Below, in pieces: positions 45,001-48,000 of a stretch of 64,000 nt of DNA (the first letter of the stretch is position 1; each line of letters starts with the position of its first letter). This DNA is from Candidatus Aenigmatarchaeota archaeon (GTDB lineage: Archaea > Aenigmatarchaeota > Aenigmatarchaeia > CG10238-14 > SCSR01). Position numbers: made by a program. The stretch covers positions 1 to 64,000 of the forward strand of contig JAWBTW010000001.1 in NCBI GenBank assembly GCA_039000165.1. The letters run 5' to 3'.

Positions 45001-48000
45001 CTAGTGCTAACTGGTTTATAATCTTGAAGGATTATATACTTGGGTTTGAAAGTATTATTTAAAGTAAGTTTTTCACTCCCTCACTATTCTTCCACTTCTT
45101 GGTACAGAAACCTGAAGCTTATCCCTAAACTCAGTAACAAAAGCTCCTGTTATTGAAACAGTATCACCTATGCTTACAGCTTTTATTTGCTCTCCCCATA
45201 AGGTTAAAGTTACTTGCCCAGTTTCATCTTCAATAGTAGCGTCGGCAACACTTCTTTTTCCATACCTTGTCATTACTTCACGCTTATCAGAAATGTCAAT
45301 AACTTTTGCTCTTAAGCTTACATTACTCATTCCATTTTTTAACTCGTTTATCTTCATTCTTTCACAATTTTAAATCGTGTTTAAAGTTATTAAGCTTTGC
45401 TTTCTCTAAAGGCCAGGCATCTTCTAAAAGCAGGTCAGGAACGTTTTCTAGAACAGGAAAAGCAAGCTCGCATTTTTTGCAAACCAAAAACATTTCCCTT
45501 TCTTCTATCTTTTCCTTACATTTTGGACAAGCCAAAATTTCTAAAAGCTCTTTTGGAAGCATAAGGATTATTTGAAAATTTAAAAATAAAACTTTTTTAT
45601 TTGAAACTTGGATAAGTTCCAGGTTTTATGAAAACCTTATCAGTTTTTATTGCTATCCCTTTTTTCCTTTCAAACATTTCCTCGCTATTCAAAACAGCTT
45701 TTCCTAAGGCAACTAACTCTTCTTTCAAAGAATAAACAGCTACTATTTCATTTTTCTCTATTCCTTCTTGAATTCTTGTTAAGCCTGAGCAGAAAACTGG
45801 CGCTCCATGACAAATTGAATCGACAGCAGAATCTTTAACAAAAACTCTTTTTAAGTGCAAAACAGCAAACTCAACAGGAATCAAAATTTCTTTTAAAAAT
45901 TTTTCATTTCCTTCTTTCCAAAATTCATAAGCATCCCTAATCTCCACTAAGGAATGAGCCTGCTCTTCAGTAAAATTTCCTGCTTTTGTCCTTCTTAGCT
46001 CAGTTAAATGAGCTCCTATTCCTAAGCTTAAGCCTAAATCGCTAACAAGCTTTCTTATATAAACTCCAGCTTGGCATCCAACTTTAAACAAAACATCCTT
46101 TCCTTCAATTTCCAAAATATCAAAAAAATAAACTTTTTTTTCTCTTGGTTTTCTTGCAACTGCACTTCTTACAGGCGGGACTTGAACTATTTTCCCAACA
46201 AACTTTTTTACTCCTTCTCTTAAAATTTCTTCATCAACTTGCTTGTGTAAGTGCATCACTCCTACGTATTCTTTATCTAAACCTAAAAGCACACTCATAG
46301 CTTTTGTTGCGTTATCTAAGGCTACAGGTAAAACTCCGGTCACGCCAGGATTTCCTCAAAGTTCTAAGGTCCCAGCATGACCAGCCTTTTTTGCTTGAAA
46401 TATTTCCTTTACCCACTGAGTTACTTGATGGCTTGTTGGTCCTGCATGCTTATCAACTATTATCACTGAATTTTTTATTTGCTCTTCTATGCTTCTCTCG
46501 CTAGGTCTTTTACCATAACTTTCGTCAGTTTCTTCCTCTGCTTTAATCAGCCAGATTTTTTCACCCCCTTGACTTTAAGGCCATGCGCAAAAAACTCTTT
46601 TATCATAAGAAAAACAAAGACTATAGCTGCTATAAGAATTACTAGAAAAACTGGAAACAGTTGAGAGGAAATTTTCCAATTTCCTATGGTAATTTCAGGG
46701 AATTGGATATTGCCAATAGACCAAGTTGGAAATTGGATTTCGCCTTGAGGTTTTTGAGTTTGAGTTGTAATTTTTTTAACTTTTATGCTAAAAGGAAAGG
46801 TAAAGTTACACTCTCTACTAGTTACGTTTAAAACAAAAGAATAATACTTGTCCTCAGTTAAATTTGGTGTTACAAAATCAAACTTTATGTCAACATAACC
46901 AAAAGGAGGAAGGGAAACTAATTCTAAAGGTTTAGGATAAACTTTAAGCTCAGAAAAAATTGAGTAGTTTAAGCCAAATAAACTGTTACCTAAGTTTGTC
47001 ATTCTTACGGAATAATTTATTGTTTGAGAAGAGTTAAACTCCTGAGCTTGTAGACTAAAGTTTACATTGCAAGAAAGGTTCTGTGAAGTTTCATTCCTCA
47101 CATTTGTTATATTTGTTGTGTTTTTAATAACAATAAAATCTAGGAAAGGTTCAACAGTTACCGAAGTTCCGTTTATATCTTCAGCAGTGATGTTTGCTAA
47201 CACATAGTAGCCTTCTTTTTCTTTTATTGAAGAAAACCATAAACCATTTCTGTTTGTCCCTATTTCAAGGCTAAGATTAATGATTTTATAGCCAACTACC
47301 TTAAAATCTAGAGTATGAGTTAAAAGAGTTGCATAAACTTTTGTTACGTTAGTATCAGAAGTAACATTAGCTGAGAGAATTAAAGAAGTGTTTTCATAAA
47401 CTATTCCTTTAGGAGTGAGTCTGTAGGAGTTTATAGAAATGGCTTGAGAAACTGGAATTAAAAGGAAAAAAATTAAGAGCAAGAGTGACTTCTTCATAAT
47501 TACTTTTTTGTTAAACTTGGAATTATTTCTTTCCTTTTTTAGGTTTTGTCCAAAATCTTATCGCAACAACAATTATTGCCACGATTGCTAATATAATAGT
47601 TGCTAAAAGTTGTGGGCTGCTTGTTATTAAACCAAATAAACCTGTTGGAATTGGTGCTATTATCTCCTCTTGATAAGGAGTAATTTTGCTGCTTTTTGCT
47701 TCTAGTTGATAGGTTTTTCCTTTAACCTTGAAGGATACCTTTGCTATTATTTCCCCTTCTTCTAATGAAGGATAAACCGAAAAGTAAGAGACTTTTGTTT
47801 CACCTGGTTTGATTTCTTGAGTTACTTGTGAGGGAGTATAATTCCATGTTTCTGGAACACTTAAGTTTAGAGACACACTTACAGTTTCTGATTCTTCATT
47901 TTTAATTCCAATTCCAAAACTAAACTTTTTATCTGCTAATACAGACTCAGGCTCTATTAAATATTCAACACTTACTTTCGGAACCTCTTCCTTTTTAACT

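Follow-up and report, generated by a model that had tools for sequence, protein, structure and literature searches.

A 12-nucleotide insert in the catalytic Asp codon of cbf5 as a probable minimal BHB-type intron in an Aenigmatarchaeota archaeon

In the window, a stretch of 64,000 nucleotides from the genome of a Candidatus Aenigmatarchaeota archaeon, the minus strand at 46556-45597 carries the gene for Cbf5, an essential RNA-modifying enzyme (pseudouridine synthase), which is interrupted by 12 nt at 46363-46352, AACTTTGAGGAA. Judging from the sequence, its fold and its relatives, these 12 nt are very probably a minimal intron of the bulge-helix-bulge (BHB) type, usually removed from tRNAs, in the cbf5 pre-mRNA, where it would be cut by the tRNA splicing endonuclease EndA and the exons joined by RtcB and archease. 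The insert lies between base 1 and base 2 of the catalytic Asp codon (phase 1). Read without interruption, the minus strand gives ...GCT GGT CAT GCT GGG ACC TTA GAA CTT TGA GGA AAT CCT GGC GTG ACC GGA..., the translation of which is AGHAGTL-EL*GN-PGVTG. The sequence confirms an earlier note that 12 nt with an in-frame TGA split the catalytic Asp codon: upon their removal, G|AT is joined and GTL-D-PGVTG (GTLDPGVTG) is obtained.

The two pieces of the gene carry different Pfam domains, namely DKCLD upstream of the insert and TruB_N (profile positions 20-149), TruB_C_2 and PUA downstream of it. This locus is the sole strong cbf5 match in the 91.6%-complete genome. The host is a tiny hot-spring archaeon. 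The dN/dS values within the genus, where dS reaches >1, are 0.05-0.17 for exon 1 and 0.08-0.23 for exon 2, indicating strong purifying selection on both exons in the six species of the genus. The start of exon 1, previously regarded as unclear, can be placed at an ATC codon behind a strong Shine-Dalgarno sequence (Table 1). The six genomes of the genus all have this ATC and all keep the Shine-Dalgarno-like motif (GGGGGTGA; GGAGGTGA in L005), and the motif is found in two further genomes, G159 and G019, there before a TTG start.

Table 1. Features of the cbf5 locus and of the splicing enzymes. Positions without a prefix are those of the window; C2 and C4 are contigs.
Feature	Position	Strand	Details	Basis
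cbf5 exon 1	46364..46556	-	64 codons plus G of the catalytic Asp codon	translation, Pfam DKCLD
cbf5 start codon ATC	46556-46554	-	ATG or TTG there in relatives, directly before WLIK	
Shine-Dalgarno-like GGGGGTGA	46561..46568	-	4 nt upstream of the ATC start	
cbf5 exon 2	45597..46351	-	AT of the Asp codon, 250 codons and stop TAA	Pfam TruB_N, TruB_C_2, PUA
Putative intron AACUUUGAGGAA	46352..46363	-	12 nt, relaxed BHB type (hBH / bulge-helix-loop)	sequence, fold, comparison
In-frame TGA within putative intron	46356..46358	-		translation
Outer exon-exon helix (15 bp), 5' strand	46370..46384	-	in exon 1	minimum-energy fold
Outer exon-exon helix, 3' strand	46336..46350	-	in exon 2	minimum-energy fold
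Central 4-bp helix, exon strand CCUU	46366..46369	-	covaries with the intron strand across lineages	fold
Central 4-bp helix, intron strand GAGG	46354..46357	-		fold, comparison
3' bulge AAA	46351..46353	-	predicted 3' cut AA|A	fold
Loop AGAACUUU	46358..46365	-	8 nt, open 5' bulge, with predicted 5' cut AG|A	fold
EndA	C4:31804-32367		188 aa	
RtcB	C2:75693-76997			
Archease	C2:69130-69537			

The minimum-energy fold reproduces the succession of helix, AAA bulge, 4-bp helix and loop described in the earlier note. The region 46395-46325 folds at -31.7 kcal/mol (z = -5.25), and none of 200 shuffled sequences folds as well. With cuts at the canonical BHB positions, AG|A and AA|A, the exons would meet precisely in frame, G plus AT forming GAT. 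An inner helix is absent above the 5' site, leaving the 5' bulge open, and the loop bases differ among the genomes of the genus. The 12-nt insert thus does not have the canonical hBHBh' form, with two 3-nt bulges and an inner helix, because the inner helix is missing; it corresponds to the relaxed form (hBH or bulge-helix-loop), with one 3-nt bulge, a 4-bp helix, an outer helix and a symmetrically placed cut in the loop. The longer introns of relatives reach the canonical form, with inner helices of 3-10 bp, as in L072, which has two 3-nt bulges 4 bp apart.

Of 30 loci of relatives, 7 carry the insert and 23 lack it; the carriers are G029 and every one of the six genomes of the genus. The seven positive loci are those counted previously, and the previous 22 negative loci and one unplaced locus become 23 negative ones, as the remaining locus (L030) is continuous. 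The distribution is not limited to the genus and G029: the intron was found in 17 of 371 Aenigmatarchaeota genomes and in records labelled Woesearchaeota, Nanoarchaeota, Bathyarchaeia, Heimdallarchaeota, Nitrososphaerota, Thermoproteota and Calditenuaceae. A near-identical copy lacking the intron, as expected of a cDNA-like sequence, was not found in the metagenome contigs scanned; the nearest metagenome loci are L214 (88% identity), in which the intron is present, and L242 (90%), which ends before the site. A second BHB site in cbf5 was detected at GPT|SHQ, and one gene contains an intein and an intron together.

In total, 78 distinct inserts of 11-38 nt were collected at the cbf5 site. The 12-nt length is therefore not special. 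Translation is blocked at every insert, since 42 of the 78 shift the frame and the other 36, the lengths of which are multiples of three, all hold an in-frame stop. The central helix is fully paired in 77 of the 78 inserts, a number that includes related, non-independent sequences and in which three of the four central pairs are given by construction for 57 inserts, because these were found with a pattern fixing ACCTTAG and AGGA. The other searches of relatives, including the Aenigmatarchaeota survey, left the intron unconstrained. Ten exon/intron combinations occur, of which CCUU/GAGG, CCUU/AAGG, CUCU/GGAG, CUCU/AGAG, CUCU/AGGG, CCCU/GGGG, CACU/AGUG, CACU/GGUG and CUUU/GAAG are fully paired, and the tenth, CCCU/GAGG, has three of the four pairs. 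The predicted central helix covaries, that is, pairing is kept by compensatory change. The 3' bulge has the form ANA in all 78 distinct inserts, and 75 of them show AGN at the three positions of the 5' cut.

For the 12-nt inserts alone (10 distinct sequences), 91.1% of the cells are paired, compared with 32-47% when the partners are slid, values close to the 93.3% and 33-45% obtained earlier. Pairing in this set is 88.7% in the outer helix (helix 1) and 100% in the 4-bp helix, where two pairs are changed on both sides, in agreement with the two compensatory pairs reported before. The outer helix has on average 11.8 of 15 pairs in 62 intron-bearing sequences and 8.5 of 15 in 76 intron-less ones, and the Asp codon is GAT in 62/62 of the former but in 45/76 of the latter. 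The exons flanking the putative intron are under structural constraint. Part of the exon-exon helix is owed to the conserved peptide GH.GTLDP.VTG; random sequence would be expected to give approximately 5.6 of 15 pairs, fewer than the 8.5 of the intron-less sequences.

EndA, RtcB and archease are all encoded in this genome, as the earlier note had it, with scores of 95, 549 and 155 bits, respectively. EndA is represented by a single alpha-type gene containing both Pfam EndA domains, and its closest solved structure is the alpha4 enzyme of M. jannaschii (1a79, E = 2.6e-29). A second EndA-like gene was not found at E <= 1 in the 91.6%-complete genome, where a very divergent beta subunit could escape. 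The catalytic Tyr and His residues are spaced by 15 residues, compared with 9 in M. jannaschii, and the additional Lys/Arg-rich KLKRGP loop aligns without gaps with that of the alpha subunit of N. equitans and nearly so with that of ARMAN-2. The Aenigmatarchaeota belong to DPANN, a superphylum of archaea with small genomes. Passages of PMC5829648 tie such loops in alpha4 enzymes of DPANN archaea to relaxed motifs, and also describe the cleavage of relaxed motifs as confined to (alpha-beta)2 and epsilon2 endonucleases. The single alpha-type EndA of this organism would have to accept a motif with an open 5' bulge, and it presumably does. A point against our reading is that the 5' cut would fall in an open loop while the genome shows one alpha-type EndA gene. 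Nop10, a partner of Cbf5, is present in the genome. Gar1 (PF04410) was not found, an absence that carries little weight because the control search, run on four archaeal genomes, failed to recover it in one of them.

The site in phase 1, the frame-restoring cuts, the covarying helix and the encoded enzymes provide comparative support for the interpretation of the insert as a BHB intron, and we infer its cleavage and ligation from these sequence features. In the transcript, the conserved exon stretches flanking the catalytic Asp codon would form a long helix, above which would follow the AAA bulge, a helix between exon CCUU and intron GAGG, and the 8-nt loop. EndA would cut behind the second base of the bulge (AA|A) and at the symmetric site 4 bp away on the opposite strand (AG|A), and RtcB with archease would join the exons and re-form the GAU codon. 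Active Cbf5, with a full length of about 315 aa, would be made from the spliced mRNA only; translation of the unspliced mRNA would end at the intron TGA with a product of 66 residues, 64 from exon codons and the last two Glu-Leu. A genome-wide scan for mRNA introns, which required 4 pairs in the central helix, 5 in the outer one and an ORF that reopens upon removal, yielded 16,088 motif hits and 189 candidates and recovered cbf5, but was non-discriminating: the candidates inspected, C7:7837 and C16:4173 among them, are normal boundaries between genes, each with its stop codon, ribosome-binding site and start codon. ARAGORN in intron mode made 45 tRNA calls, many of them with introns; because several are plainly false (800 and 1806 nt), their positions and motif types were not used.

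It is very unlikely that cbf5 is dead or split, giving either no useful product or two fragments (66 aa, and 248 aa from GTG 46343), including the case that a fragment acts without the catalytic Asp, for example as an RNA chaperone. An ORF starting at this GTG exists and GAGGA sits 9-13 nt upstream of it, but the start is lost in relatives, which have GTA (L072, L260 and L288), GCA (G120 and G320) or GTT (G341) instead. The strong purifying selection indicated for both pieces in six species (dN/dS 0.05-0.23) and the retention of the partner Nop10 also speak for a working gene. Furthermore, the sole change common to all lineages is a structured insert in the exact phase at one codon, and a catalytically dead sole copy of Cbf5 in many lineages would be hard to expect. 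Handling of the insert during translation, by stop-codon read-through, recoding of TGA or ribosomal bypass, is highly improbable. Although the insert of this genome is in frame and holds one TGA, its read-through product would carry ELxGN in place of Asp and thus lose the catalytic residue, and 42 of the 78 inserts shift the frame. The residues encoded by the insert are not conserved, varying among the inserts, whereas the RNA pairing is kept. Recoding of TGA is contradicted by G029, the stop of which is TAA, as stated in the earlier note, and by L072, the insert of which contains TAA, TAG and TGA. Matching take-off and landing codons that bypass would use are absent around the insert by inspection.

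Removal of the 12 nt from the RNA by other means than EndA, either by an unknown nuclease and ligase or by self-cleavage, is also unlikely. It could be favoured on the grounds that the EndA of this genome is of the alpha type, regarded as strict in passages of PMC5829648, and that the 5' bulge is not closed. However, the geometry is exactly that of a BHB substrate (a 3-nt bulge, a 4-bp helix and cuts after bulge base 2), the longer inserts of relatives show the full canonical motif, and the loop of EndA resembles those of broad-specificity enzymes. Self-cleavage receives no support from an Rfam scan of 45000-47000, which contained neither a ribozyme nor any other family, apart from two chance matches (E = 0.72 and 0.98). 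That the insert is an artefact of assembly or sequencing has a negligible probability, and nothing was found in favour of it. In three of the four runs tried, which belong to three studies, DNA contigs carry the insert without gaps or joints; one of these contigs (36,888 nt) spans the whole of the stretch compared, and the insert is therefore not an assembly error. Moreover, it is carried by six species of the genus and by many other assemblies. The 11 sequencing runs (5 studies) containing the stretch include no RNA run on record. On the points given above, we rejected the artefact and pseudogene readings as well as recoding of the TGA and bypass by the ribosome.

The cbf5 pre-mRNA intron of Crenarchaeota was reportedly studied by Watanabe in 2002 and by Yoshinari in 2006, and is treated by Yokobori in 2009 (PMC2738675). 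According to passages of PMC2738675, it lies between bases 1 and 2 of the catalytic Asp codon, is 16-44 bp long, has been demonstrated to be spliced and arose in the ancestor shared by Desulfurococcales and Sulfolobales. By this text rather than by sequence, the intron described here agrees with it in host gene, position and phase, so that the identity of the site proposed in the earlier note holds at this level. The two also share BHB or relaxed BHB borders, cuts behind bulge base 2, a short length and the lack of an ORF. They differ in length, the 12 nt found here lying below the 16-44 bp of the crenarchaeal introns, and in host, which here belongs to the Aenigmatarchaeota (DPANN). The crenarchaeal EndA is described as a heterotetramer with an N-terminal Crenarchaea-specific loop, whereas here there is one 188-aa alpha-type gene with a basic Tyr-His loop and not an (alpha-beta)2 enzyme. 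Splicing is stated there as demonstrated and is deduced here from sequence, and the distribution found here is far wider than the ancestry of two orders implies.

The non-canonical tRNA introns of archaea with a broad-specificity EndA, treated in passages of PMC5829648 (hBH, HBh' and bulge-helix-loop), belong to the same relaxed class, in which one bulge and the 4-bp helix are intact while the second site is open. They are presumably processed by the same enzymes, and 12 nt is at the low end of the sizes of archaeal tRNA introns (11-175 nt in passages of PMC2738675). In contrast, the cbf5 intron lies in the coding region of an mRNA, its outer helix is built from two protein-coding strands and it is not embedded in a tRNA. 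The BHB intron in the 5' UTR of Haloferax volcanii HVO_1309 (passages of PMC7714728) is likewise an mRNA substrate of the splicing endonuclease, but it is located in an untranslated leader of a euryarchaeon, interrupts no codon and has been confirmed in vitro and in vivo. The 12-bp insertions in protein-coding genes of an archaeal virus, putative introns mentioned in PMC2738675 with reference to Peng et al., resemble the present one in length and in their location inside coding sequence.

In the searchable literature, the cbf5 intron is known from two crenarchaeal orders only, and PMC7714728 (2020) states in its discussion that, its own 5'-UTR case aside, no other BHB intron within an archaeal mRNA had been reported. 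By the labels of the records, the cbf5 intron is scattered through many archaeal groups from which it had not been reported: DPANN (Aenigmatarchaeota and Woesearchaeota/Nanoarchaeota), TACK (Bathyarchaeia, Nitrososphaerota and Calditenuaceae) and Asgard (Heimdallarchaeota). This wide distribution reopens the questions of when and how often it arose. We tentatively raise the possibility, which we consider rather doubtful as a whole, that the Asp-codon intron, rather than being a crenarchaeal peculiarity, is more widespread than any other protein-coding intron of Archaea, occurring in DPANN, TACK and Asgard; that it goes back to a very early archaeal ancestor and was lost many times; that it shrank to an 11-12-nt bulge-helix-loop where an alpha-type EndA gained a basic loop; and that cbf5 is a standing target of the tRNA splicing machinery. 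The second BHB intron at GPT|SHQ and the gene with both an intein and an intron would fit the picture of a standing target. Alternatively, self-complementary coding sequence at the Asp codon may have captured BHB introns repeatedly and independently.

An 11-12-nt bulge-helix-loop in a host that shows just one alpha-type EndA puts to the test the rule that relaxed motifs and pre-mRNA require hetero-tetrameric or epsilon2 enzymes. In addition, as the ORF table of this genome indicates, gene callers will give cbf5 as truncated or split in intron-bearing genomes. Because cbf5 is among the marker genes for placing and scoring archaeal genomes, both annotation and marker-based statistics are affected. 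Finally, since the putative intron interrupts the catalytic codon, how much active pseudouridine synthase is available would depend on the tRNA splicing enzymes, a dependence that would constitute a simple and testable regulatory link.

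As read from the minus strand, the cbf5 frame of the window runs ...AGHAGTL-EL*GN-PGVTG... and contains a TGA codon. Excision of a 12-nt insert fuses a G with the following AT and restores the TruB/Cbf5 catalytic motif, GTLDPGVTG. In Pfam searches, the upstream piece matched DKCLD, and the downstream piece matched TruB_N, TruB_C_2 and PUA; because the TruB_N match begins at profile position 20, the junction lies inside this domain. Contigs from three runs of three studies contain the insert without gaps or joints, and one of these (36,888 nt) covers the whole stretch; a fourth run yielded no contig here. 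The runs are hot-spring metagenomes, and the strain variants at the insert differ in loop bases only. The insert is therefore real DNA, and the earlier note's description of a 12-nt insert that carries an in-frame TGA and splits the catalytic Asp codon stands. The start codon, which that note had left open, appears to be an ATC located 4 nt after GGGGGTGA: each of the six genomes in the genus has ATC at this position, and the relatives G029 (ATG), G159 and G019 (both TTG) have start codons at the equivalent position, directly before WLIK. The ORF directly downstream of cbf5 contains two CxxC pairs (CPKC...CKKC), and we take it to resemble a Trm112-type zinc-ribbon protein.

Coordinates of cbf5 and other features (window positions unless a locus, L, or genome, G, is named)
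Feature	Position	Strand	Remark
cbf5 exon 1	46556-46364	minus	
Apparent start codon, ATC	46556-46554	minus	
cbf5 intron	46363-46352	minus	12 nt, AACTTTGAGGAA
In-frame TGA	46358-46356	minus	
cbf5 exon 2	46351-45597	minus	
cbf5 product			315 aa after intron removal
ORF upstream of cbf5	46547-47497		316 aa; overlaps the ATC start by 10 nt
ORF downstream of cbf5	45362-45562	minus	66 aa
tRNA-Ser(UGA), ARAGORN	43454-43599	minus	146 nt, 59-nt intron; ~2 kb from cbf5
Second intron site, L108	L108:1370-1400		
Second intron site, L115 (G082:C10)	about 225-245		
Second intron site, L117 (G293:C69)			
cbf5 with intein, L120	G019:C6:10023-13156		locus 501-2834

For the 71 nt that surround the insert, the predicted folding energy is -31.7 kcal/mol (z = -5.25), and none of 200 shuffled sequences was as stable. 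The predicted structure consists of a 15-bp helix that pairs exon 1 with exon 2, a 3'-side AAA bulge, a CCUU/GAGG pairing and a loop. Under the BHB reading, the 3' cut would fall at AA|A and the 5' cut at AG|A, on the other strand and four base pairs away; these predicted sites coincide exactly with the frame-restoring borders. With no inner helix to close it, the loop that contains the 5' site is open, and the modelled intron falls in the relaxed hBH or bulge-helix-loop class. Among ten distinct 12-nt sequences, 91.1% of the cells are paired in this structure versus 32-47% when it is slid; the earlier note gave 93.3% and 33-45%. The 4-bp helix is 100% paired in these sequences, with two pairs altered on both sides. 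Longer inserts gain an inner helix of 3-10 bp and attain the canonical BHB fold, as in the Woesearchaeota-labelled locus L072.

Among 30 loci of relatives, the 12-nt insert is present at the same place in 7, namely all six genomes of the genus and G029 of another family, as already reported; the remaining 23 are continuous, the previous tally having been 22 absent and one site not found. A scan of 371 Aenigmatarchaeota genomes, with a pattern fixing only the conserved exon codons and leaving 10-40 free bases between them, matched 18 genomes, and a backwards control pattern matched none. One match, on contig 1 of G110, was dropped as a chance hit, since it is GC-rich and lies outside the cbf5 of that genome. 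The intron, 12-38 nt long, is present in at least 17 of the 371 genomes, which represent 11 families and 11 or 12 of the 170 genera; this count is a minimum because the pattern demands an insert of 10-40 nt and the peptide His-x-Gly-Thr-Leu. Within genera its occurrence is patchy, often with one species bearing the intron and others lacking it (one of six in genus g11 and one of nine in g20).

Beyond the phylum, 80 loci collected by protein similarity among species-representative genomes include 10 with an insert at the site, 69 that are continuous and 1 that is cut off. The 10 comprise five phylum members already seen, three loci labelled Woesearchaeota (L072, L085 and L108) and two labelled only 'archaeon' (L097 and L098). 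A scan of ~185,000 species genomes, restricted to one subtype (exon ...ACCTTAG, intron ending in AGGAN), gave 70 loci, of which 57 are cbf5 with an insert in the Asp codon; the other 13 are unrelated chance hits (12 bacterial labels and one Methanospirillum). According to record titles, the 57 belong to Bathyarchaeia/Bathyarchaeota (20), Woesearchaeota (14), Aenigmatarchaeota (8), Nanoarchaeota/Nanoarchaeia (5), Thermoproteota (2), and Heimdallarchaeota, Nitrososphaerota, Calditenuaceae and 'Methanosarcinales' (1 each), with 4 labelled 'archaeon' and no finer. The 80 loci on metagenome contigs from JGI divide into 14 with the insert, which measures 11-22 nt, 61 without an interruption and 5 that are truncated. 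The metagenome locus L244 has the shortest insert found, AGATAGAAGAA, which at 11 nt is one base less than that of the window and has the central helix CUUU/GAAG.

Pooling all loci gave 78 distinct inserts, 42 of which have a length that is not a multiple of three, and all 36 in-frame inserts contain a stop. The encoded residues are unconserved (EL*G, E*RR, EN*G etc.), whereas the RNA pairing is conserved. Together, these patterns argue that the insert must be removed from the RNA. The central helix is completely paired in 77 of the 78, a count in which three of the four pairs are fixed by pattern construction for the 57 subtype-scan loci; the sole exception, in G159, is CCCU/GAGG with one C-A pair. 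The exon tetranucleotide varies via synonymous Thr-Leu codons and the intron strand changes to match, the fully paired exon/intron combinations being CCUU/GAGG, CCUU/AAGG, CUCU/GGAG, CUCU/AGAG, CUCU/AGGG, CCCU/GGGG, CACU/AGUG, CACU/GGUG and CUUU/GAAG, a variety that stems from the searches leaving the intron unconstrained.

The exons were compared between 62 intron-bearing and 76 intron-less sequences; the sequences are related to one another, and ATCC is fixed by the pattern in those that came from the subtype scan. The exon-exon helix has on average 11.8 of its 15 positions paired in the former and 8.5 in the latter, consecutive pairs counted from the bulge average 5.15 versus 0.74, and GAT encodes the Asp in 62 of 62 versus 45 of 76. 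Random sequence would be expected to pair at ~5.6 positions. The intron-less baseline (8.5 of 15) exceeds this because the codons for GH.GTLDP.VTG are in part complementary to one another, a property that may predispose the site to carrying a BHB intron. Within the genus, exon 1 has a dN/dS of 0.05-0.17 and exon 2 one of 0.08-0.23, and dS reaches values >1. The genome, at 91.6% completeness, contains no other strong cbf5 match, and Nop10 is encoded. These features point to a cbf5 that is in use. Gar1 was not found in a genome search whose control was weak.

In one Woesearchaeota-labelled record and two Aenigmatarchaeota genomes, cbf5 has another BHB intron site, which lies within GPT|SHQ and has inserts of 20-22 nt (cut AC|A ... 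|T/A). Its central helices covary (UCCU/AGGA, UCCC/GGGA and CCCU/GGGG), and the insert of L115 gives a textbook BHB fold. Both introns occur in one gene in G293; the cbf5 of the window is continuous at this second site. The cbf5 of G019 contains an in-frame intein of ~530 aa (Pfam Intein_splicing and LAGLIDADG_3) between TruB_N and TruB_C_2 as well as a 15-nt Asp-codon intron, and thus has intervening sequences at both the RNA and protein levels. In L023 (G034:C21), an otherwise intact, intron-less cbf5 has a single in-frame TAG within AHMK*LRRTK; this is not an insert, and either a sequencing error or a nonsense point mutation may account for it.

Genome searches bore out that EndA, RtcB and archease are all encoded. 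EndA is a single 188-aa gene carrying both EndA domains, its best solved relative being the M. jannaschii alpha4 enzyme, and no second EndA-like gene was found in the genome at E <= 1. Compared with the M. jannaschii and M. kandleri enzymes, it is longer by six residues in the segment that separates the catalytic Tyr from the catalytic His (VKLKRGPKAPHEH); the alignment of these residues with the alpha subunit of N. equitans needs no gaps, and that with ARMAN-2 almost none. Among 30 loci examined, all 26 that have short frames (174-236 aa) and in which the motif was found retain the loop; two loci were without the motif, and four have frames of 246-402 aa with an ARMAN-2-like loop. Two EndA architectures occur inside one order. 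The 188-aa alpha type is found in most genomes; in families f5 and f7 and in part of f2, the EndA matches lie in open frames of 246-409 aa that have the ARMAN-2-like loop YFPGASP..KEW(I/Q)H (L319-L322 of G036, G033, G031 and G028; also G025 and G030, G025 having both kinds). Passages of PMC5829648 describe alpha4 enzymes of DPANN lineages that contain a loop, L3, termed 'Nanoarchaea/ARMAN-2', and connect these enzymes with disrupted tRNA genes; from the alignments, we infer that the loop of this genome is L3. Besides tRNA-Ser(UGA), ARAGORN called many tRNAs with predicted introns and none for several amino acids, which hints at disrupted tRNA genes.

According to passages of PMC2738675, crenarchaeal cbf5 introns measure 16-44 bp, mostly form unconventional BHB structures and occur in Desulfurococcales and Sulfolobales only, the N. 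equitans cbf5 being intron-less. A passage of PMC7714728 names crenarchaeal cbf5 as the only mRNA BHB intron reported up to 2020, besides that paper's own 5'-UTR case. Consistent with the earlier note, our search of the openly readable full-text literature found no cbf5 intron reported outside Crenarchaeota, and no paper matched cbf5, intron and DPANN. The window intron shares gene and site with the crenarchaeal introns but differs in its minimal size (12 nt), in a motif relaxed to bulge-helix-loop and in its host, a DPANN archaeon with an alpha-type EndA carrying an inserted loop. The BHB-type reading stands on the fold, the frame-restoring cut borders, the covariation and the encoded EndA, RtcB and archease, all read from sequence. 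The element is probably best regarded as a member of the known cbf5-intron phenomenon, and the larger result is that the Asp-codon intron, as judged from these scans, is scattered over DPANN, TACK and Asgard genomes.
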